Origin: Candidatus Babeliales bacterium | GTDB taxonomy: Bacteria > Babelota > Babeliae > Babelales > JANWKD01 | DNA: 64,000 nucleotides | Direction: 5' to 3' | Assembly: GCA_963762115.1 (NCBI GenBank) | Contig: CAVXJH010000006.1 | Coordinates: 224,001 to 288,000, forward strand | In this document: piece by piece, positions 12,571 through 59,642 of the stretch | Position numbering within the stretch: the stretch's first letter is position 1 | How the letters are laid out: each line of letters starts with the position of its first letter | Notes under the pieces: model-generated | The model's database searches: none | What the model was told of the DNA's origin: nothing | Seen by the model: the letters and a program-made list of their open reading frames with translations, nothing else | Position numbers and translations under genes: made by a program

Positions 12571-12718
12571 TATTTCCTAACAAAATAAAATAGTTATATT
12601 TGAACGTTAGAAAAAAATCATTATGAAAATCAAGAATTGTAAAAATAATATGTTTTATGATGTATTATTTAGAAGAGTATGTTCTTATAAAAATTGTTAT
12701 TATTTTTTATATTCTTCG

Positions 12719-12873
12719 GCCCTATGCGGGCAGCACAAAGGTATTGTTTGCCCAATACCTTTGATACAAGGGCACCAACGTTCCGTTGGATCGTCTCTCC
12801 CGCGCGAATATGCACCATTCCATTGTTGATGCCTTCAGCATCAAAATTCCAGGTGCACGTCGCACTACCGGAC
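12719..12873 (-). ncRNA. Putative structured non-coding RNA, family unassigned (6S RNA is one candidate)
   Basis: GC-rich island in an AT-rich intergenic region; closing stem plus three internal hairpins; G-U pairs favour the minus strand. Confidence 0.6.
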
Positions 12874-12943
12874 TAACTTATTTATAAAAAAATTTCACCA
12901 TGCAATATATTCATGCCTTGCCGGCATAAGGCAAGTTTTGATG

Positions 12944-29418: not shown

Positions 29419-29981
29419 AGATAAAGTAATTCTAAAGTGAATTTGATGAGTAGGAACACGTGAAGTAAAAAATATTTTCATGAGAAAAAAAGCATTAATA
29501 ACAGAAATGTCATTGCTGTATGTGTTCAGAGTTTCGGTGAATAATTTTTTACACAAAGTGGCAATCAAAGTTGAATTGTAAGTTTTTTAATTCCTTAAAC
29601 GGGTATGCCGGTTTCTTTCAACAATTCGGATGGTACTTTGCCATTCAAACCTTGATGCGGCCGATGTTCATTGTGATAGAAATTATATCCAAGAACAGCA
29701 TCTTTTAATTCATCGATTGTGTTAAAGATGGATCCTTCAATAACTTCATCATCAAAAGAACGCCAAAATCTTTCAATTTTTCCATTTGTTTGTGGTCTAT
29801 AAGGCAAAGTTCTTCGATGTTTAATCGCAAAATGAAGTAGCAATCGTTCAAAAGGATGATTTTTTAATTTTTCTGGCGTTGAACAAAACTCAGCACCATT
29901 ATCTGTCAGAGCTTCATCAAAGGTGATATTATATCGTTGGTTCATATGTAAAATAATATCCATCATAGTGATTGTGTTAAA

Positions 29982-29987
29982 AGTCAA
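29982..29987 (-). promoter_or_regulatory. -35 box TTGACT in the IS110 right end; pairs with -10 TATGTT (31175-31170) at 17-bp spacing only in the excised circle
   Basis: Circle junction reads TTGACT-TTTAACACAATCACTTG-TATGTT. Confidence 0.8.
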
Positions 29988-30013
29988 ATATTTTTTAATA
30001 AAGCTAAACAATA

Positions 30014-30955
30014 TTAAGCTTTACATAATTCACCTTTTTTTAGTAAAGAATTAGCAATCACAATAAGTTTATGCATAATAGCTACGATAGCTATTTTAAA
30101 AGGTTTTTTAGAAGTTATTAAACGATCGTAAAGTTCCTTTAATGGGAGATGATATTTAATAGTTGTTAATGCACACATATAAAGCATATTTCTTGGAATA
30201 GTTCTTCCACCTCTGATGAATTTTTTACCCTTATAACTTCCACTTTCATTCTCATAAGGACAAACACCAATGAGTGCTGATACTTTTTTATTACTTATTT
30301 GACCAAGTTCAGGAACGAATGATAATAATGTTGCAGCTGAAGTTTTGCCTATTCCTGGAATTGACTCCAAAATTTTTGATTTTGTATTTAATTTTTCATC
30401 TTGCTGAATTAAATCTTGTATCTTTAAATCAATTGATTTGATTTCGCACTCTAAGATTTTGATAAATTTCTTTATACTTGATGCATATAATGCATGAGAT
30501 GGATGTTTAGATCTTGTTTTTTCGGCAACTAAAAATTTTACCAAGTCATTTTTACGATTGACCAAAGCTTGTAATTTTTCTTGATTTTCGCTTTTGTTCA
30601 TTATCTCATAATCAGGAGAATTTTTAGAAGCAAATTCAGCAATTTTTCGAGCATCAATTTTATCCGTTTTGCTTTTGCAGCCACTAGCAACAATATAGCC
30701 TTTTATTCTTCTTGGATCGATGATCCAAAGATAATAACAATTTTTTTTTAATATTCGAGCAAGTAATTTTTCATACCCACCAGTTGCTTCGCATGCAATT
30801 TGTTCGATATCATATTTAACTAATTCTTTAATGATCTCCGTTATTCCAACTTCTGAGTTTGATACTTTTAAAGATTTTCCTATTGGATGGATATAAACAT
30901 CTAAAGTGTTTTTTGAAATATCGACACCTATAAATACTTTTGATATATTTTTCAT
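30014..30955 (-). CDS. IS110-family DEDD recombinase/transposase, intact, 313 aa
   Basis: IGVDISK, CEATG and KTDKID (DEDD); SIPGIG; catalytic Ser in NESGS. Confidence 0.96.
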   Translation of the reverse strand: MKNISKVFIGVDISKNTLDVYIHPIGKSLKVSNSEVGITEIIKELVKYDIEQIACEATGGYEKLLARILKKNCYYLWIIDPRRIKGYIVASGCKSKTDKIDARKIAEFASKNSPDYEIMNKSENQEKLQALVNRKNDLVKFLVAEKTRSKHPSHALYASSIKKFIKILECEIKSIDLKIQDLIQQDEKLNTKSKILESIPGIGKTSAATLLSFVPELGQISNKKVSALIGVCPYENESGSYKGKKFIRGGRTIPRNMLYMCALTTIKYHLPLKELYDRLITSKKPFKIAIVAIMHKLIVIANSLLKKGELCKA

Positions 30956-30960
30956 AAATA

Positions 30961-31163
30961 CCTCTGGCTTGTAGACATGCGAGATCGTATGTACTTGATA
31001 CGTCTCTAGTGATTGTTCGAGGTCATTTTTGTATAAGCTGATAGTCTCAAACTATGACACGGTCCTTTGAGACCAAGCTTGACACGAGATCTATCAGCTT
31101 CTCAAACAATTAATTTCAAAACAACTGATCATAAATTAACAAAATTTAGCTTTAAAATCATTT
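30961..31163 (-). ncRNA. Bridge RNA of the IS110 element (target-binding loop 31100-31035, donor-binding loop 31022-30961); 5' end inferred from the promoter
   Basis: Two stem/internal-loop/stem domains; loop sequences ACAATCACT and TACAAG match the donor junction, and TCATAG matches the target flank. Confidence 0.88.
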
Positions 31164-32131
31164 TGATTTAACATACAAGCAAAGGCAACATCAATTGCCT
31201 TTAAAGATTCAATTACTTCGACCCAAACTATTCTCGAAAAATCATCAATTACACCCAATACAAAATATTTCTTTTTAGGTTCAGATTGTACAATTCCCTT
31301 AGGTAGGTAATGGCAATCTATATGAGCTAATGATCCTGCAAATGTTCTCACAATCTTTCTTTTTTCCTCTTGCACTAATTTAGTTAATTTAGAAACACCA
31401 TATTTTCGTAAAGTTCGATACACTGAACTTGCAGAAAAACCCTTTTTAATCAAAGGATTTTTTTTGAGGGCCGCAGCGATAACATACCTATTTAAACCTG
31501 ATTTTCGGTATTCCAAAATTTTTTTTACAAGGCTATCATCTGCAAGTGGAAGTTCCTCAAATTTAGGTTTAGGACCACGCCTTATAGGCAGTAGAAGTTC
31601 GGGAATTCCCTGGGCCGCTTTATAGCGCCCATAAAGTTTATAAAAATTCTGGAAACAGAGCTCCCTGGCTTCAAAAAATTCTCGAACAAACCTAAATTGT
31701 GGATGCTTTTTTGCCTTAACAAGCTCATATTCTTCTACATATTTTAGCATGTACTTTATTGAATTACTAACCAAAGTAGGATACGATGTATTTATACTCA
31801 CAAAAGAACTCCTGTGTTAAAATTGTTAATATTTGCGTATTCTAATTCTAACTCTGATTTACTTTTGTGGGTATTTTTTTATTCACCGAAATTATGAACT
31901 TTTACAATTGCGAGCCAACATTGTTGGCGTGGCAACCCAGCATATAAAATGCTATTAATTTTTTCCTATAAAGTGAATTAAAAAATATTTGTTAATGTAA
32001 TAATTTTTTTAGGATTTTATTAATAAGAACATTATAATCTGGATCCCCACGGCACAATGTGCCTCGGGAAGACATTTTGATTATTTTGTTATTTTGTAAA
32101 TCATTAGTTCTGGCATAATTAGTAATATTTT

Positions 32132-33288: not shown

Positions 33289-35421
33289 ATGAAAATAAAG
33301 AAATTAATTTTTTTATATTTTGTATTCGTAGCTAAAATTATGGCTGAATCTCATGAAGCCCGTATTGATAATTATGCCCAAGAGTCTTTGATGACTTTTT
33401 TTGAATATATATTTGATCATGAGGAAGAAAAAAATACTGAATTTTTTGATTCATTAACCAGATGTTATGATCAATTAAAAAAAGGCAATCAATCATTATG
33501 CATTGGAGATTTATTGATAGCCTCGCCATTATTGATCGCCTATTGCGATGAATATATTGTAGGTGAAAGTTATAAAAGTGTTAGTTGTGATATAGGTCCA
33601 ATCATTCTCTTGCTTAATGCTTTGAAAGCACAAATAAATCAACTTGGTCAAGATCAATTTAATTGTTGTCAACTCTTGCAATCTGATTTTCAAGAAACTT
33701 TCAGCATCTTATTTGAAGTGACTCAAAGTTTTTCTACTTTTGATGCAACCGTTGCTCTTCTGGTTGATACAATTGCAACATTAACAAATAGTATTACATC
33801 ATTTACCGGTATTCCATTGAGTATTGCAGTGTTACAAGATACTGTTGAAATGTGTTGTGATACTATTAATAGTGAATTTCAACAAACATGGACTATCCTT
33901 GGTAATACATTAAATGTGGTGAATAACTGTTGTAATTCAATTTCAAATGATTTTAATGGAACATGGACTTTTTTAAATGCAGAATTTAATCAAGTGTTTA
34001 ACATGCTTTCAACAGTAACTCTAGAAGAACTTTGTCAACCAACAGCAATCATAGCGCCCACTACTATTATATTGCCAGGTTCTTATTGTCTCGCAACTAA
34101 TATTACCGGTACCATTATTATAAATGCAAATGATGTCGTTCTTGATCTTAATAATCATACAATATTTAACGGCCAGATTATTATAAGTGGTAAAAATAAT
34201 AGTATTGTTTGCAATGGTATTTTAGATAATGCCACAACGGGTTCTTGTGCAATTTCAATAACGAACTGTTCAAATGTTATTCTTGATGCTCTCATGGTTA
34301 TAAATCCCAATGATGGTATTCAATGTGGCCAATCAACAAATATTGTTATAAAAAATTGTATTATTAGTGGTGCTCAGAAAAATGGTCTTACTATCATTAA
34401 TACTTCAACGGCATTACGCATTGAAGATTTTGAAATTATTAATACTACTTCAAATGCCATTTATATTAATGCTAATGTTCAAGATTTAACGTTACAAAAT
34501 GGGCATATAAAATTTAGTAATGGTATTCGTGCAGAAACAGGATTTTCTGCAAACAATATAAAATGCATTGATATTTTTGTAGAAGGTACCCCTATTACAC
34601 TTTTTCCTATGAATTTTTTGGGAACTTCAAGTAATTTCTTTTTTTATAATGTTCAAATAGCTGATGCCGGCCAAGGTATGCAATTTAATAATATTTCTCA
34701 AAGTTTATTTCAGAATTGTGTGGTAAAAAATATTTCAACGCCCGCATCATCTGCTGGCAGTGCATTCCGTATTGATAATGGTGTAAATAATAAATTTGAT
34801 AATTGTGTTGTGTTGTCTATGACAACAACTGGAAGCACAACTCTTGATGCTTTTAAAATGACCAATGTTAATAATCTGATTTTCAAGGAATGTTCAGTTG
34901 AAGGTATAAATGGGGTTAACGGTGTTGTAAATGGTTTTAGTAGTAATAATTCACAACGAATAACAATGCAAGATTGTGTTGTGCACAATATAACAACGAG
35001 CACACAAGCAGACGGATTTCATCTGCAGGCAACAAGTAATGTTATCATGACTGATTGTGTTGCTAATGGGTGCAGTTCAAATGGTTATTTTTCTAGTGGA
35101 GGTGCAAATATAACGGTATCAAACTGTATAGCTAATAATTGCTTGGCAGATGGATTTCATTCAGCATCTACAACAAATGTTCTCTATGAATATTGTTATA
35201 GCAACAATAATACCGGAGTTGGTTTTAATGTTGCGAATGCAATTTGTGGTAATTGTGAAAGTAGTAGAAATGTTGGTTTTGGATTTAATGGTAATTCAAG
35301 TTCGATCGCTTATAATTGTTTTGCTGGGTTAAATATTACCGGTGCCTATACGGCGATGACAGATTCTGTGCAAGCATTAGATGCTGGTTCTCCAAAGGTT
35401 GGTTATAGTATTTCGGCGTAA
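33289..35421 (+). CDS. Secreted Cys-rich coiled-coil plus right-handed beta-helix protein
   Basis: AGGA SD before ATG at 33289; CC..INSEFQQTWTIL repeats; PGSYCLATNI..VVLDLNNHTI beta-helix start. Confidence 0.85.
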   Translation: MKIKKLIFLYFVFVAKIMAESHEARIDNYAQESLMTFFEYIFDHEEEKNTEFFDSLTRCYDQLKKGNQSLCIGDLLIASPLLIAYCDEYIVGESYKSVSCDIGPIILLLNALKAQINQLGQDQFNCCQLLQSDFQETFSILFEVTQSFSTFDATVALLVDTIATLTNSITSFTGIPLSIAVLQDTVEMCCDTINSEFQQTWTILGNTLNVVNNCCNSISNDFNGTWTFLNAEFNQVFNMLSTVTLEELCQPTAIIAPTTIILPGSYCLATNITGTIIINANDVVLDLNNHTIFNGQIIISGKNNSIVCNGILDNATTGSCAISITNCSNVILDALMVINPNDGIQCGQSTNIVIKNCIISGAQKNGLTIINTSTALRIEDFEIINTTSNAIYINANVQDLTLQNGHIKFSNGIRAETGFSANNIKCIDIFVEGTPITLFPMNFLGTSSNFFFYNVQIADAGQGMQFNNISQSLFQNCVVKNISTPASSAGSAFRIDNGVNNKFDNCVVLSMTTTGSTTLDAFKMTNVNNLIFKECSVEGINGVNGVVNGFSSNNSQRITMQDCVVHNITTSTQADGFHLQATSNVIMTDCVANGCSSNGYFSSGGANITVSNCIANNCLADGFHSASTTNVLYEYCYSNNNTGVGFNVANAICGNCESSRNVGFGFNGNSSSIAYNCFAGLNITGAYTAMTDSVQALDAGSPKVGYSISA

Positions 35422-38139: not shown

Positions 38140-41100
38140 TTAACTTCCTGCTGCTATATTGGTCCATGCTCCTGTTACAGCAGCTATATTTGAACTTGCC
38201 GGCGCTGTTGGCGTTGTAACAGAGCCTCCTGGTACGCCGGACATTTGATTTGCCGGTGTTGATCCATTACTCCAAGCAATATTTTTAGTAAATAAATTAT
38301 TCGATCCCGTGTTAACAAGAACACCAAAGGAGTTAGCAGCGCTTACTCCTATGTTATTGCTAAAGTTACATTCTTTAATTTCACAACGGAACCCACCACC
38401 AGGAGATACAAGGTTTAATCCGGCTGCAAGGCCACCTGCTCCAGTTGCGCTGTTATTTGCCGATACGCATCGCAATATTAAACAGGTACTGGTACCATTA
38501 AGAGCAAACCCTAAACAGGTAGTTGGGCCGGAATTAGCACTTGAAATACAATCGATAAACATATTATTGAAGTTGGTAGAGGTTGTTCCGGAAACATTAA
38601 ATCCATTACATATTCCACTTGTTACTCCGCCGGCATTCCAACTAACAATGCATCCCATAAACATATTATTGGTTGATGCTCCCTGAATTAAAAATCCGTT
38701 TAACGTTGCGGCATTAGGAGCATTATTTTGTAGAACTTTACAACTATTGAACATATTATTTGTGCAAGCATTTATATTGATACCACTTAAAACTGTCCCT
38801 GATGTATTGGTGCCTGAATTTCCCTCTATAATGCAATTGGAGAACATATTAAGGCTGGACGTTGTAATAAGTTGTATGCCATTGAGTGTTAAACCAATAT
38901 TATCGTATATGTTTATATCTCTAAATGTACATTCTGTGGAGCTATTTAAGTTGAGTACTGAAATTGCGTTGGTGTTGACGCCATTATTTTTAATATTGCA
39001 ACTATAGACACTACAATCGTGGCATTGAAGCAGATATACGGGGAAGTCGGCATTAACTCCTTGAGAGCAATATAATATATTACAGTTAGCGATTTCGGAA
39101 TTTAGTATTTGCCCAGCTCCTGCAGTACCGAGTAATTCTATTGCTCGCGTTGCACAAAATAAAATATCAATATTTTGAATGCTAATTCTATTACAGCCAA
39201 ATTGTATTGATACGCCTGCTCTTGTGAAGCTTTCAATCATACCATTTTTTATGGTTATATCGGTTAGCCCATTGTTAACACCTATTCCATTAACATTTGC
39301 TGTTGTATTTCCTTGGCTGATGGTGAAACATTGTAAGTCTAAAACAACGCCGGTTGTGGTAATAAGAATTGCTGTGCTGGTTGCAAGTGGACTAAAGACA
39401 ATATTGCTACCAAGTTTGTAGACGCCAGATGTTGAAATAACATAGGTAGTTCCTCCCGCTGCACCAAAATTAGCTTGTGTAATCATAGTTGGATTACATA
39501 AATTTTGCGTTATTACATTTAACACGCTGAAGGTTCCATTGAACCCAGCTGCTTCAATAGTCCACGTTTGTTGAAATTCATTATTAATGTTATTGCAGCA
39601 TGCATTAAGTGCTGAGAAGGTACCCTGATTGTTTATGCTAAGTGCGTTTAGCGCGGAGAAAGTGCCGTTAAAGCCTGCACCTAATATTGTCCATGTTTGA
39701 TTGAAATCAGTTGAGAGTGTTGCTTTTAGATCAGTAATCACACTATAAGAGAATGCATTTGTAGTGAGTGAACTGAAAGTTCCATTAAAACCTGCACCTA
39801 ATATTGTCCAGGTCTGAGCGAAATCATTCGTCATAGTATTTTTTAGATCGCTGATCACACTATATGAAAATGCATTTGCAGTTAATGAGCTGAAGGTGCC
39901 ATTGAAACCGGCAGCTAAGATTGACCATGTTTGTTGGAACTCAGAATTAATATTTGTGCAGCAGGCGTTTAATGCACTGAATGTTCCATTAAATCCTGCT
40001 CCTAAGATAGTCCACGTCTGAGCAAAATCATTCGTCATAGTATTTTTTAAATCACTGATCACACTGTAAGAAAAGTTACTTGCTGTGAGTAAACTAAATG
40101 TGCCGTTGAAACCAGCAGCTAGAATTGACCATGTTTGTTGGAACTCACTATTAATGTTTATGCAGCAGGCATTCAATGCTGAGAATGTTCCATTAAATCC
40201 TGCTCCTAAGATAGTCCACGTCTGAGCGAAATCATTAGTAATTGTATTTTTTAGATCAGCAATTGCTGAGAAAGTTCCATTTGCTTCGGTATTAATATTG
40301 TTAATTGCAGAGAAAGTACCATTAAATCCAGCACCAAGAATTGACCAGGTTTGCTGAAACTCAGAATTAATATTGGTGCAGCAGACATTCAATGCTGAGA
40401 ATGTTCCATTAAATCCTGCTCCTAAGATTGTCCATGTCTGAGCGAAATCATTGGTCATTGTATTTTTTAGATCACTGATCACACTGTAAGAGAAATTATT
40501 TGAAGTTATTGAACTAAACGTGCCATTAAATCCTGCACCTAAGATTGACCATGTTTGTTGGAATTCAGAATTTATGTTTGTGCAACATGCATTGAGTGCA
40601 CTAAAGGTGCCATTGAATCCTGCACCTAAGATTGTCCACGTCTGAGCAAAATCATTCGTTATAGTATTTTTTAGATCGCTGATCACGCTATAAGAGAAGT
40701 TACTTGCTGTAAGTAAACTAAATGTTCCATTGAAACCAGCGCCTAGAATTGTCCACGTTTGTTGGAATTCAGAATTGATGTTGGTGCAACATGCATCAAG
40801 TGCACTGAAGGTGCCGTTGAATCCTGCTCCTAAGATTGTCCAGGTCTGAGCAAAATCATTCGTTATCGTATTTTTCAGATCAGCAATAACGCTATAAGAG
40901 AAATTATTTGAAGTTATTGAACTAAACGTGCCATTAAATCCTGCACCTAAGATTGACCATGTTTGTTGGAATTCAGAATTGATGTTAGTGCAACATACAT
41001 CAAGTGCACTGAAAGTTCCATTAAATCCTGCAGCAACTGCTGAGAAAGTACCTGATAAATCAGCATCTAATTCTGCAATTGCACTGAATGTGCCATTGAA

Positions 41101-44100
41101 TCCTGCACCCAAGATTGTCCACGTCTGAGCAAAATCATTAGTCATTGTGTTCTTAAGATCTGCAATAACACTGTAAGAAAAGTTGTTCGCAGTAATTGAG
41201 CTAAACGTTCCATTGAAGCCAGCACCTAAAATTGACCATGTTTGTTGGAATTCAGAATTGATGTTGGTGCAACATTCATCAAGTGCACTAAAGGTGCCAT
41301 TGAATCCTGCACCTAAGATTGTCCATGTCTGAGCAAAATCATTAGTCATAGTATTTTTTAAATCAGCAATTGCTGAGAAAGTTCCATTTGCTTCAGTATT
41401 AATGTTGTTAATTGCGCTGAAAGTGCCGTTGAAACCAGCACCCAAGATTGACCATGTTTGTTGGAATTCAGAATTGATGTTAGTGCAGCATGCATTGAGT
41501 GCACTGAAAGTTCCATTGAACCCAGCAGCAACTGCCGAGAAAGTACCCGATAAATCAGCATCTAATTTTGCAATTGCACTGAAAGTTCCATTGAATCCTG
41601 CACCAAGAATTGACCATGTTTGTTGGAATTCAGAATTGATGTTGGTGCAACATGCATCAAGTGCACTGAATGTGCCATTGAATCCTGCTCCTAAGATTGT
41701 CCAGGTCTGAGCAAAATCATTAGTTATAGTATTTTTAAGATCGCTGATCACGCTATAAGAGAAGTTACTTGCTGTAAGTGAACTAAATGTTCCATTAAAT
41801 CCTGCGCCTAAGATTGTCCAGGTCTGAGCAAAATCATTGGTGATTGTGTTTTTAAGATCACTGATCACACTATATGAGAAATTATTTGAAGTGATTGAGC
41901 TGAAAGTTCCATTGAATCCTGCAGCTAAGATCGACCATGTTTGTTGAAACTCAGAATTGATGTTGGTGCAACATGCATTGAGTGCACTAAAGGTGCCATT
42001 GAATCCTGCACCCAATATTGTCCACGTCTGAGCAAAGTCATCAGTCATAGTATTTTTTAAATCAGCAATTGCTGAGAAAGTTCCATTTGCTTCAGTGTTA
42101 ATGTTGTTAATTGCGCTGAATGTTCCATTGAATCCTGCACCAAGAATTGACCATGTTTGTTGGAATTCAGAATTGATGTTGGTGCAACATGCATCAAGTG
42201 CACTGAATGTGCCATTGAATCCTGCTCCTAAGATTGTCCAGGTCTGAGCAAAATCATTAGTTATAGTATTTTTAAGATCGCTGATCACGCTATAAGAGAA
42301 GTTACTTGCTGTAAGTGAACTAAATGTTCCATTAAATCCTGCGCCTAAGATTGTCCAGGTCTGAGCAAAATCATTGGTGATTGTGTTTTTAAGATCACTG
42401 ATCACACTATATGAGAAATTATTTGAAGTGATTGAGCTGAAAGTTCCATTGAATCCTGCAGCTAAGATCGACCATGTTTGTTGAAACTCAGAATTGATGT
42501 TGGTGCAACATGCATTGAGTGCACTAAAGGTGCCATTGAATCCTGCACCCAATATTGTCCACGTCTGAGCAAAGTCATCAGTCATAGTATTTTTTAAATC
42601 AGCAATTGCTGAGAAAGTTCCATTTGCTTCAGTGTTAATGTTGTTAATTGCGCTGAATGTTCCATTGAATCCTGCACCAAGAATTGACCATGTTTGTTGG
42701 AATTCAGAATTGATGTTGGTGCAACATGCATCAAGTGCACTGAATGTGCCATTGAATCCTGCGTCTAAGATTGTCCATGTTTGAGCGAAATCATTGGTGA
42801 TTATGTTTTTCAGATCAGCAATGACGCTATAAGAAAAATTGCTTGCAGTTAATGAGCTGAATGTGCCATTGAAGCCTGCACCTAAGATTGACCACGTTTG
42901 TTGGAATTCAGAATTGATATTGGTGCAACATGCATTGAGTGCACTGAAAGTGCCATTGAATCCTGCACCCAAGATTGTCCATGTTTGAGCAAAGTCATCA
43001 GTGATTGTTGTTTTGAGATCGGCAAGAACGCTGAATGTTCCTGCGGCATCAGTGTTAATTTCTTCAATTACTGAGAACGTTCCATTAAAACCAGCAGCTA
43101 AGATTGACCACGTTTGTTGGAATTCAGAATTGATGTTGTTGCAACATGCATTGAGTGCACTGAAGGTGCCGTTGAATCCTGCAGCAACTGCGGAGAATGT
43201 ACCCGATAAATCAGCATCTAATTCTGCAATTGCACTAAAGGTGCCATTAAATCCTGCACCTAATATTGTCCAGGTCTGATTGAAGTCAGTTGAGATTGTT
43301 GCTTTGAGATCAGTGATAACACTGTAAGAAAAATTATTAGAGGTGATTGCGGCAATGCTTGAAAATGTTCCATTAAAACCAGCGCCTAGAATTGACCAGG
43401 TTTGTTGGAATTCAGAATTGATATTAGTGCAACAGGCATTAAGGGCGGTAAAAACTGGTGATAAATCAATTGATGCAGTTACTGTTCCAATATTAGCAAG
43501 AATGGTCCATGTTTGTTGAAAATCAGAAATTAGTTCTGTGCAACAATTTAATTGTTGTTGGCAACATTGATTAATTTGAGCCTGTAGTTGATGAATTAAT
43601 GCAACAATTTGACCTAGATCGCAGGTTGGTGCTCCGGCTAAATTGTCATGAAGATTTGCTGTTGGGCGAGGTGCTTTGAGTTGTATGTTTAATTCTTTGA
43701 TTAATTCTGGCAACGCCTCCATGAGGTCGATTAGAGGTAGCGAATAGCATTTTTCATCAATGATGCATTGCTCATAACAATTAAGAAGCCCTTGTGAAAG
43801 GTTTCCTTCTGACTCTTGTTCTAATGATTTTTGAATAATGGCATTAATAAAGATTTTGAAAGAGTCATCGATATTAATTTCTTTTGAAATAATATTATTT
43901 TCTACGTTGGTTGTTGGTTGTTGGTTGTTGGTTGTTGGTTGTTGGTTGTTGGTTGTTGGTTGTTGGTTGTTGGTTGTTGGTTGTTGGTTGTTGGTTGTTG
44001 GTTGTTGGTTGTTGGTTGTTGGTTGTTGGTTGTTGGTTGTTGGTTGTTGGTTGTTGGTTGTTGGTTGTTGGTTGGAAAATATATTTGAAAATGGCAATAA

Positions 44101-53074: not shown

Positions 53075-53173
53075 TGTCATTCTGAGCGCTCCTTGAGTGC
53101 GTAGGAATCCAGGTATAAGGTTTTTCCATTTTATTGACTGGATCACTACGGAACTTCGTTCCTCATGATGACA
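53075..53173. repeat. REP/RPE-like palindromic element, intact
   Basis: TGTCATTCTGAG-hairpin-CGTAGGAATCCAG ... CTGGATCACTACG-hairpin-CTCATGATGACA. Confidence 0.8.
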
Positions 53174-58950: not shown

Positions 58951-58970
58951 GCTGTTTAAAGTTTATTTCG

Positions 58971-59534
58971 TATGACAGAAAACCCCAGGGTTTTAAACCT
59001 GGGGATGAATGTCATCAAATGCGCGAGCGAAGCAAAAATGTAAATTTTTGCGAAGTGAGGTTAGTTTTGTCATACTAATTGACATGACAAAGAAATATTG
59101 GCACGGAGCGCATACAACTCATAGGCATATGTATCATATAGTTTGGTTACCTAAATATAGAAAAAAAGTATTAGAAGGCAAAGTTAAGAGCAGGTTAGAA
59201 GAACTTTTGCGAGAATGTGCGGAAATTAATGCATGGGAAATTCAAGAACTAAATATTCAGATAGACCATGTGCATCTTGTAATACAATTACCACCAAGTG
59301 TGAGTGTGAGCAAGGCCGTTCAATTACTCAAGGGAATTTCAAGTAAAATGCTCAGAGCTGAATTACCTGAAATAAAGAAATTTTTGTGGGGTAACGATTT
59401 TTGGGCAGATGGATATTTCTCTGAAACATTTGGACAATGTTCAGAAGAGACAATTCTCAATTATGTTAGAAATCAATAAAAAGCTTTCATCTCGTGCTTC
59501 TAAATCCACGGCTTTTAAGCCGTGTGTTGTTTAA
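58971..59534 (+). mobile_element. IS200/IS605-family element, TnpA only; ends approximate
   Basis: Subterminal hairpins CCCCAGG/CCTGGGG (58983-59004) and CACGGCTT/AAGCCGTG (59507-59524). Confidence 0.85.
59084..59479 (+). CDS. tnpA: IS200-family Y1 HUH transposase
   Basis: YHIVWLPKYR, DHVHL (HUH), LKG.SS, W..GYF and YV.NQ. Confidence 0.95.
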   Translation: MTKKYWHGAHTTHRHMYHIVWLPKYRKKVLEGKVKSRLEELLRECAEINAWEIQELNIQIDHVHLVIQLPPSVSVSKAVQLLKGISSKMLRAELPEIKKFLWGNDFWADGYFSETFGQCSEETILNYVRNQ

Positions 59535-59642
59535 TCGAATTTAATATTTTCATAATTTTACGATAAGCTCTTATGCCAATAGTCTTTACGTGGAATAACA
59601 AAAAATTTTATAATTATAGAGTAAAAAAAGAGAGGGTAAGAT

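Follow-up and report, generated by a model that had tools for sequence, protein, structure and literature searches.

The window, by which is meant the whole stretch of 64,000 nucleotides from Candidatus Babeliales bacterium that was analysed, carries on its minus strand an IS621-like IS110 element (31177-29967). This element sits inside an IS481-like transposase gene, which it splits into a 5' half (31180..31801, minus strand) and a 3' half (29595..29966, minus strand). It measures 1211 bp when one CT core is counted, and the core is duplicated, with a left copy at 31178..31179 and a right copy at 29967..29968 (both on the minus strand). Five copies of the element, 99.9-100% identical, are present in the 1.53 Mb genome (7 contigs). 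They differ by two substitutions in total, both inside the recombinase gene, and the region of the bridge RNA, guides included, is identical in all five. The recombinase gene (30014..30955, minus strand) encodes 313 amino acids with the DEDD and Transposase_20 domains (PF01548, PF02371), and its product passes the NCBIfam model NF033542 (190 bits for a cut-off of 140). The recombinase aligns with the distant IS621 protein (8wt6; E 1e-32), and in this alignment the catalytic D, E, D, and D residues (motifs GID/GVD, EATG, and KTD-x-xDA) as well as the conserved serine (ESGS) are present. Every testable defining feature of an IS621-like element is found here.

The other three IS481-like copies of the genome are uninterrupted and represent empty alleles of the window site; one of them, on contig C5, gives an intact frame of 331 amino acids. 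The two halves in the window are 100% and 99.8% identical to an intact copy, and removal of the element at the duplicated CT rebuilds an intact reading frame. Comparison of the filled and empty alleles fixes the ends of the element and shows that only CT is duplicated, with no longer target duplication. Similarly, a contig from a sequencing run omits exactly 1211 bases between 29966 and 31178, which is the length of the element. IS481 is the best family for the intact copy, but its score with NF033577 (163 bits) lies under the curated cut-off of 224, hence the name IS481-like. The four IS481-like copies are located on contigs C3, C5, and C6 of this genome (G000). The C3 pair shares about 96% identity over the 5' part, and the one on C5 is near-identical to that of the window; the IS481-like element has therefore also moved recently.

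The left end of the IS110 element bears a subterminal inverted repeat (31162..31177, minus strand), whose imperfect partner lies at 29988-29973. A -10-like hexamer (31175-31170) and a -35-like hexamer (29987-29982) can be recognized in the sequence, and a circular form of the element would join them, with a spacing of 17 nt, into a putative promoter. No circle joint was found among the DNA contigs of the sequencing runs examined. After insertion, a hairpin of the IS481 gene is followed by the T-rich left end of the element (31203-31170, minus strand). This is the sole terminator-like site predicted in 29900-31300 and may restrict read-through transcription into the bridge RNA.

The non-coding left end of the element folds into two stem-internal-loop modules (30956-31186; fold z -5.5), and the consensus fold of 14 guide sets contains two-sided changes in 11 of 35 pairs. 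This fold and this consensus together define the predicted target-binding loop of the bridge RNA (31035..31100, minus strand), with an outer stem formed by 31100-31086 and 31048-31035 and an inner stem-loop at 31075-31060. The loop contains the left target guide (LTG, 7 nt plus core; 31076..31084, minus strand) and the right target guide (RTG, 6 nt plus core; 31052..31059, minus strand). As for the donor side, the left donor guide (31008..31016, minus strand) is identical to the right end of the element plus core (29975-29967), and the right donor guide (30968..30973, minus strand) is complementary to the core and the first 4 nt of the left end; the donor guides thereby fit the element's own end junction, with a 9-nt left and a 6-nt right match. 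Just after the right donor guide lies the handshake base of the donor loop, C 30967 (minus strand), which is complementary to target position -1 (G). This complementarity holds at 23 of 23 sites and is maintained through covariation of three different bases (G, C, and A). The set includes sister copies and kin and is thus not independent, and the left guide likewise reads position -1.

Relatives of the element were searched in 61, then in 261 related genomes and in metagenomes, which yielded 38 loci. Those with at least 55% identity (25 loci) were parsed and the 13 below 55% were left out; among the parsed loci, L013 duplicates L003, and two without left flank and three without right flank were dropped from the counts. 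Across these relatives, which are not independent of one another, the target guides covary with the flanks of the insertion sites. On the right, positions 1-5 are paired in 19-20 of 21 sites; on the left, pairing goes from 22 of 22 sites at -1 down to 14-15 of 22 at -5 to -7. At least three left positions are unpaired in 5 of 22 sites, and the right equivalent is encountered in 1 of 21. In addition, a soil run from another study (X3) contains a variant 95-99% identical to the window element, in which one base of the right guide (31055) and one of the distal left guide (31083) are changed and the left repeat is unchanged. The complementary change, ACG instead of ATG, is found in the right flank of this variant; guide and right flank are located on different contigs, both of low depth (4.0 and 2.7). 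The guide register proposed in the earlier note is thus confirmed by the covariation in relatives and by the joint change of right guide and target in X3, and a wrong register is ruled out by this guide-flank covariation.

Some loci show peculiarities. Compared with the other 13 guide sets, L014 has a right guide with one base less, and the insertion site of L018 shows a tandem duplication of about 20 nt from the left end, a stretch that contains the core. In L023, the right guide does not match the right flank, which duplicates a sequence present upstream of the element and thereby suggests a later rearrangement; this locus was nonetheless kept in the site counts. A pattern scan of viral contigs gave no further insertion sites, a contig scan of the genomes for more sites gave only the duplicate of L003, and the plasmid matches to the element were all less than 60% identical. 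Runs X2 and X4 added no junction. Run X1 shares the variants of this genome and may be its source sample, and was therefore not counted as independent.

Four of the five element copies are inserted in a GC-rich repeat that can form a hairpin and is compatible with both guides; it is called REP-like on account of its GC-rich, multicopy, and hairpin character. ISPpu9 and other REP-targeting IS110s are reportedly also multicopy elements inserted in REP sequences, as here. The left target of the repeat, TGGCAAG, pairs with the left guide at six of seven positions, and its right target, ATGGCG, forms four Watson-Crick and two wobble pairs with the right guide. In all of the 16 exact matches of the repeat, G is found where the left guide has U, which constitutes a fixed mismatch. 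Once the elements are removed, the repeat family counts 15 members by motif: those with ATG after the core are filled in 4 of 4 cases and the others in 0 of 11 (Fisher p 0.0007). The target repeat was present in 9 of 121 genomes sampled. Two of these, other than the present genome, possess empty ATG copies without a strong match to the recombinase, and conversion of the repeat to ATG by the insertion itself is therefore ruled out.

The earlier note had suggested a repeat-type preferred target and had pointed to the TGTCA and TGACA termini of repeats in the window. The first part stands, with four of five copies in one repeat; the second does not, as the targeted unit is GC-rich and none of the five insertion points lies at such a terminus. 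A TGTCA...TGACA-ended repeat does exist in the window, at 53075-53173 (no strand assigned), and is not a target of the window element; one element copy of this genome sits in a unit nested within a repeat of this type. A 76%-identical relative with other guides (L002, L007, L009; genome G001) inserts beside a TGACA terminus. This relative is programmed to the TGTCA...TGACA family and a second relative in G001 (L011) to another hairpin, that is, several repeat targets occur within one IS110 clade. Furthermore, a second multicopy intergenic repeat (12694-12908 in the window, up to 18 overlapping genome matches) often adjoins the target repeat.

At the window site, the left guide (31084-31076, minus strand) reads TGTCAAGCT, or TGTCAAG-CT, and the left flank (31186-31178, minus strand) reads GCCTTTGCT, or GCCTTTG-CT. 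Outside the CT core, one of seven positions forms a Watson-Crick pair, one a wobble, and five are unpaired, and the left target (31180..31186, minus strand) is unmatched except at -1. The mismatch between left guide and occupied site on which the earlier note was built is thus real and does not come from a register error. The right guide pairs at all five sites of the genome. With the right target of the window insertion (29961..29966, minus strand), it pairs over the core and six of six further positions, by four Watson-Crick and two wobble pairs; the earlier note had counted a single wobble. No other component fits this site than the right guide, the core, and the handshake base at -1. It lacks the canonical full match, in which the left guide has 0-2 mismatches, and has the composition of a half-match, with core and right arm complementary and left arm not. 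A half-match through the donor loop was also considered at this site and rejected, as neither donor guide fits. Across the genome, 324 sites pair fully with the right guide, 81 of them with G at -1, and none fits both guides perfectly. These data support the earlier proposal that the right guide drove a natural off-target insertion, and the window copy probably represents one such rare event.

The unmatched left target has a structure of its own. A perfect 8-bp inverted repeat is present in the IS481 coding sequence (31181..31202, minus strand; 31202-31195 with 31188-31181), and the 3' arm of this hairpin is the left target that the left guide does not match. When the 77 distinct sites that have G at -1 and a right arm paired throughout are ranked by folding energy, the IS481 site comes second and the occupied repeat sites third to fifth, the three repeat sites being kin that also fit the left guide; without the G condition, the IS481 site ranks fourth of 320. 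Stems of at least eight perfect pairs occur in the left-target position in only 3 of these 320 right-paired sites. In all five occupied sites of the genome, the left target belongs to a predicted 5' stem-loop of -5.5 to -6.5 kcal/mol. The rank test is post hoc and bears on one event, with an empirical p of about 0.01-0.03 by distinct site and of about 0.02-0.07 when the four IS481 copies are counted. The top-ranked hairpin site is empty, as are three of the four IS481 alleles; occupied sites are filtered by selection, and empty sites in genes say little.

The explanation that we favor, with confidence somewhat above even, is a half-match insertion through the right guide, probably eased by the hairpin over the unmatched left target. 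In such a mechanism, the bridge RNA would be made from the left end of the element and the circular donor would be paired by the donor loop. At the REP-like repeat, both guides would pair with the target. At the IS481 site, the right guide would pair with the top strand over the core and 6 nt, the G at -1 would satisfy both the last base of the left guide and the handshake, and folding of the top strand, as a cruciform or as single-stranded DNA, would open the left arm without pairing of the left guide. The window copy would then have persisted because it interrupts a transposase gene that exists in several copies and can be dispensed with.

It is also possible, but on balance unlikely, that a plain right-half-match insertion took place off-target and that the hairpin is coincidental, the dispensable IS481 element with its four copies being a rare place where such an event is harmless. 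Right-paired sites are indeed common (the 324 mentioned above, 81 with G at -1), and the site with the better hairpin remains empty. Furthermore, in the accessible parts of the respective reports, half-match insertion by IS621 needs no structure (10.64898/2026.08.31.748434) and the stem-loops of ISPpu10 do not rescue lost pairing (10.64898/2026.03.19.712850). However, a stem of at least eight perfect pairs in that position is encountered at 3 of 320 right-paired sites, and the left target is part of a hairpin arm in the four on-target sites as well.

A bolder version of the favored half-match insertion, in which the hairpin over the left target stands in for left-guide pairing throughout the clade and the right guide sets the address, is doubtful. 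Among the relatives, the other four sites with poor left pairing form weak hairpins in the left arm (-0.3 to -2.1 kcal/mol), though they lie in folded repeats; this also speaks against the hairpin in the favored reading. If it were true, any site combining a hairpin, G, CT, and a right match would be a target, which would create a structural class of off-targets for bridge recombinases. It would also go beyond ISPpu10, where, from what is accessible of that work, structure only boosts paired sites.

Pairing of the left guide out of register, with its distal four bases one base further out around an internal loop, seems improbable. A 1-nt bulge in the target would give four Watson-Crick pairs and one wobble out of seven. 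Three left-poor sites of relatives (L018, L020, and L036) improve likewise and pair well if one bulge is allowed, and off-targets of IS621 tolerate target insertions (PMC11208160, accessible part). However, the score obtained at the window site is ordinary: 34 of the 77 comparable sites are as good, and its duplex energy ranks 21st of 77.

The earlier note had proposed, as the alternative to an off-target insertion, that the guide drifted after insertion; a change of the flank following an initially matched insertion can be considered with it. Drift of left guides does occur in this clade, as the X3 variant shows with its altered distal left guide and unchanged left target. However, the guides are identical in five of five copies, whose only two differences lie in the gene; the flank around the core equals that of the three empty alleles, and the split IS481 gene is, as stated, 100% and 99.8% identical to the intact copy. 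Five or six changes in the guide and nothing else would be required, and drift is thus nearly refuted and has very little probability left. An assembly artefact joining two repeated elements is just as implausible. The IS110 and IS481-like elements are both repeats and, by the bridging rule, no contig of run X1 bridges either junction; yet both junctions fall exactly on the duplicated CT, an intact reading frame is rebuilt, and the right junction is spanned, with no mismatch, by a 55-nt X1 contig, which extends over less than 31 bases on each side and probably stems from the source sample.

Both loop strands begin with GTGTCA and the ideal target that they imply is an inverted repeat, as had been noticed earlier; its status as the programmed target is not borne out. 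Over 14 distinct guide sets, the first base is G in 14 of 14 on both strands, the second is U in 12 of 14 for each strand, and the third is G in 11 and 8 of 14. A 6-nt common start is seen in 2 of 14 cognate guide pairs vs. 8 of 182 non-cognate pairings, with a mean common start of 3.0 vs. 2.4, and the guide strands of the X3 variant have only 2 nt of their start in common. The three guide sets with a common start of at least 5 nt all have a right guide directed at ATGG-type repeats, whose sequence around the core is self-complementary in part. From this we infer that the palindrome echoes hairpin targets and is not an address, and that the common guide start mostly reflects a clade-wide bias together with self-complementary repeat targets. 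The common U at the fourth guide position, a wobble on the right and a mismatch on the left, is one unexplained coincidence. That the palindrome is the true target, on an element absent here, with all five sites as near-misses, is the least credible of all: no genome site fits both guides perfectly and the left guide has its fixed mismatch to the repeat, but the palindrome has no exact match in the genome and, with wobble, one match in 261 genomes, which is no more than a reversed control pattern (several genomes), its common guide start is lost in the near-identical X3 variant, and its dyad is centered on C and not on the core, so that a two-way site would not result.

REP targeting, half-match insertion, and target stem-loops are already in print, and the comparisons that follow refer to the accessible parts of the reports cited. 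As in IS621, a DEDD recombinase is associated with a left-end RNA with two internal loops, a CT core, the LTG/RTG/LDG/RDG pairing scheme, a handshake base, and REP targets (PMC11208160, PMC11208158); the pairing of this handshake base with target -1 was described for IS621 (PMC11208158). Unlike in IS621, the right guide here pairs over 6 nt beyond the core, with wobbles, whereas the native IS621 guide has 4 bp in all, and the left guide tolerates a fixed mismatch at the main target. Natural IS110 consensus targets are usually 0-2 mismatches away from the guides (PMC11208160). In vitro, a single right-target half-site sufficed for IS621, and right-only events were excluded from the genomic classes because the native guide has 4 bp (10.64898/2026.08.31.748434). 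The window insertion resembles this half-match, in that the core and one arm suffice, and differs from the cases in the accessible text of that study in being a natural genomic right-only candidate with an empty allele.

In ISPpu10 of Pseudomonas putida, a target stem-loop involving the left target raises integration, but 10 of 11 stem inversions abolished recombination, and the stem-loop cannot replace left pairing (10.64898/2026.03.19.712850, accessible part). The present element is similar to ISPpu10 in its REP target, in the location of the left target in a 5' stem-loop, and in its stringent right guide and tolerant distal left guide. Unlike what the available portion of that report describes, the window holds one natural insertion in coding DNA, outside any REP, where a stem-loop is present and left pairing is nearly absent. 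For another IS110, integration reportedly proceeds mostly through transfer of the top strand (10.1101/2025.10.25.684509, accessible part), which would suit a right-guide event because the right guide holds the top strand. In a search of the literature, neither this element nor Babeliae or Dependentiae appeared among the matches listed, in which the term "palindromic target" was also absent; preprint supplements, outside the scope of this search, may hold right-only cases.

More generally, this genome and its relatives provide a natural test set for bridge-RNA specificity. Within one genome, it includes on-target sites, near-miss repeats, one or a few bases off, that have remained empty, and an insertion matched by the right arm alone, for which the empty allele is also present; to these is added the near-identical X3 variant retargeted by one base. 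If a hairpin can replace left-guide pairing, the prediction of off-targets for bridge recombinases would need to consider DNA structure as well as sequence.

The window also contains other repeated stretches. Long coding tandem repeats of about 19 units, with spacings of 117, 204, and 216 nt, extend over 39500-43550, and related stretches are found on the opposite strand near 33860. Finally, a 574-bp stretch (58962-59535), which has three to four matches in the genome and starts with a GC-rich inverted repeat, is possibly another small mobile element.
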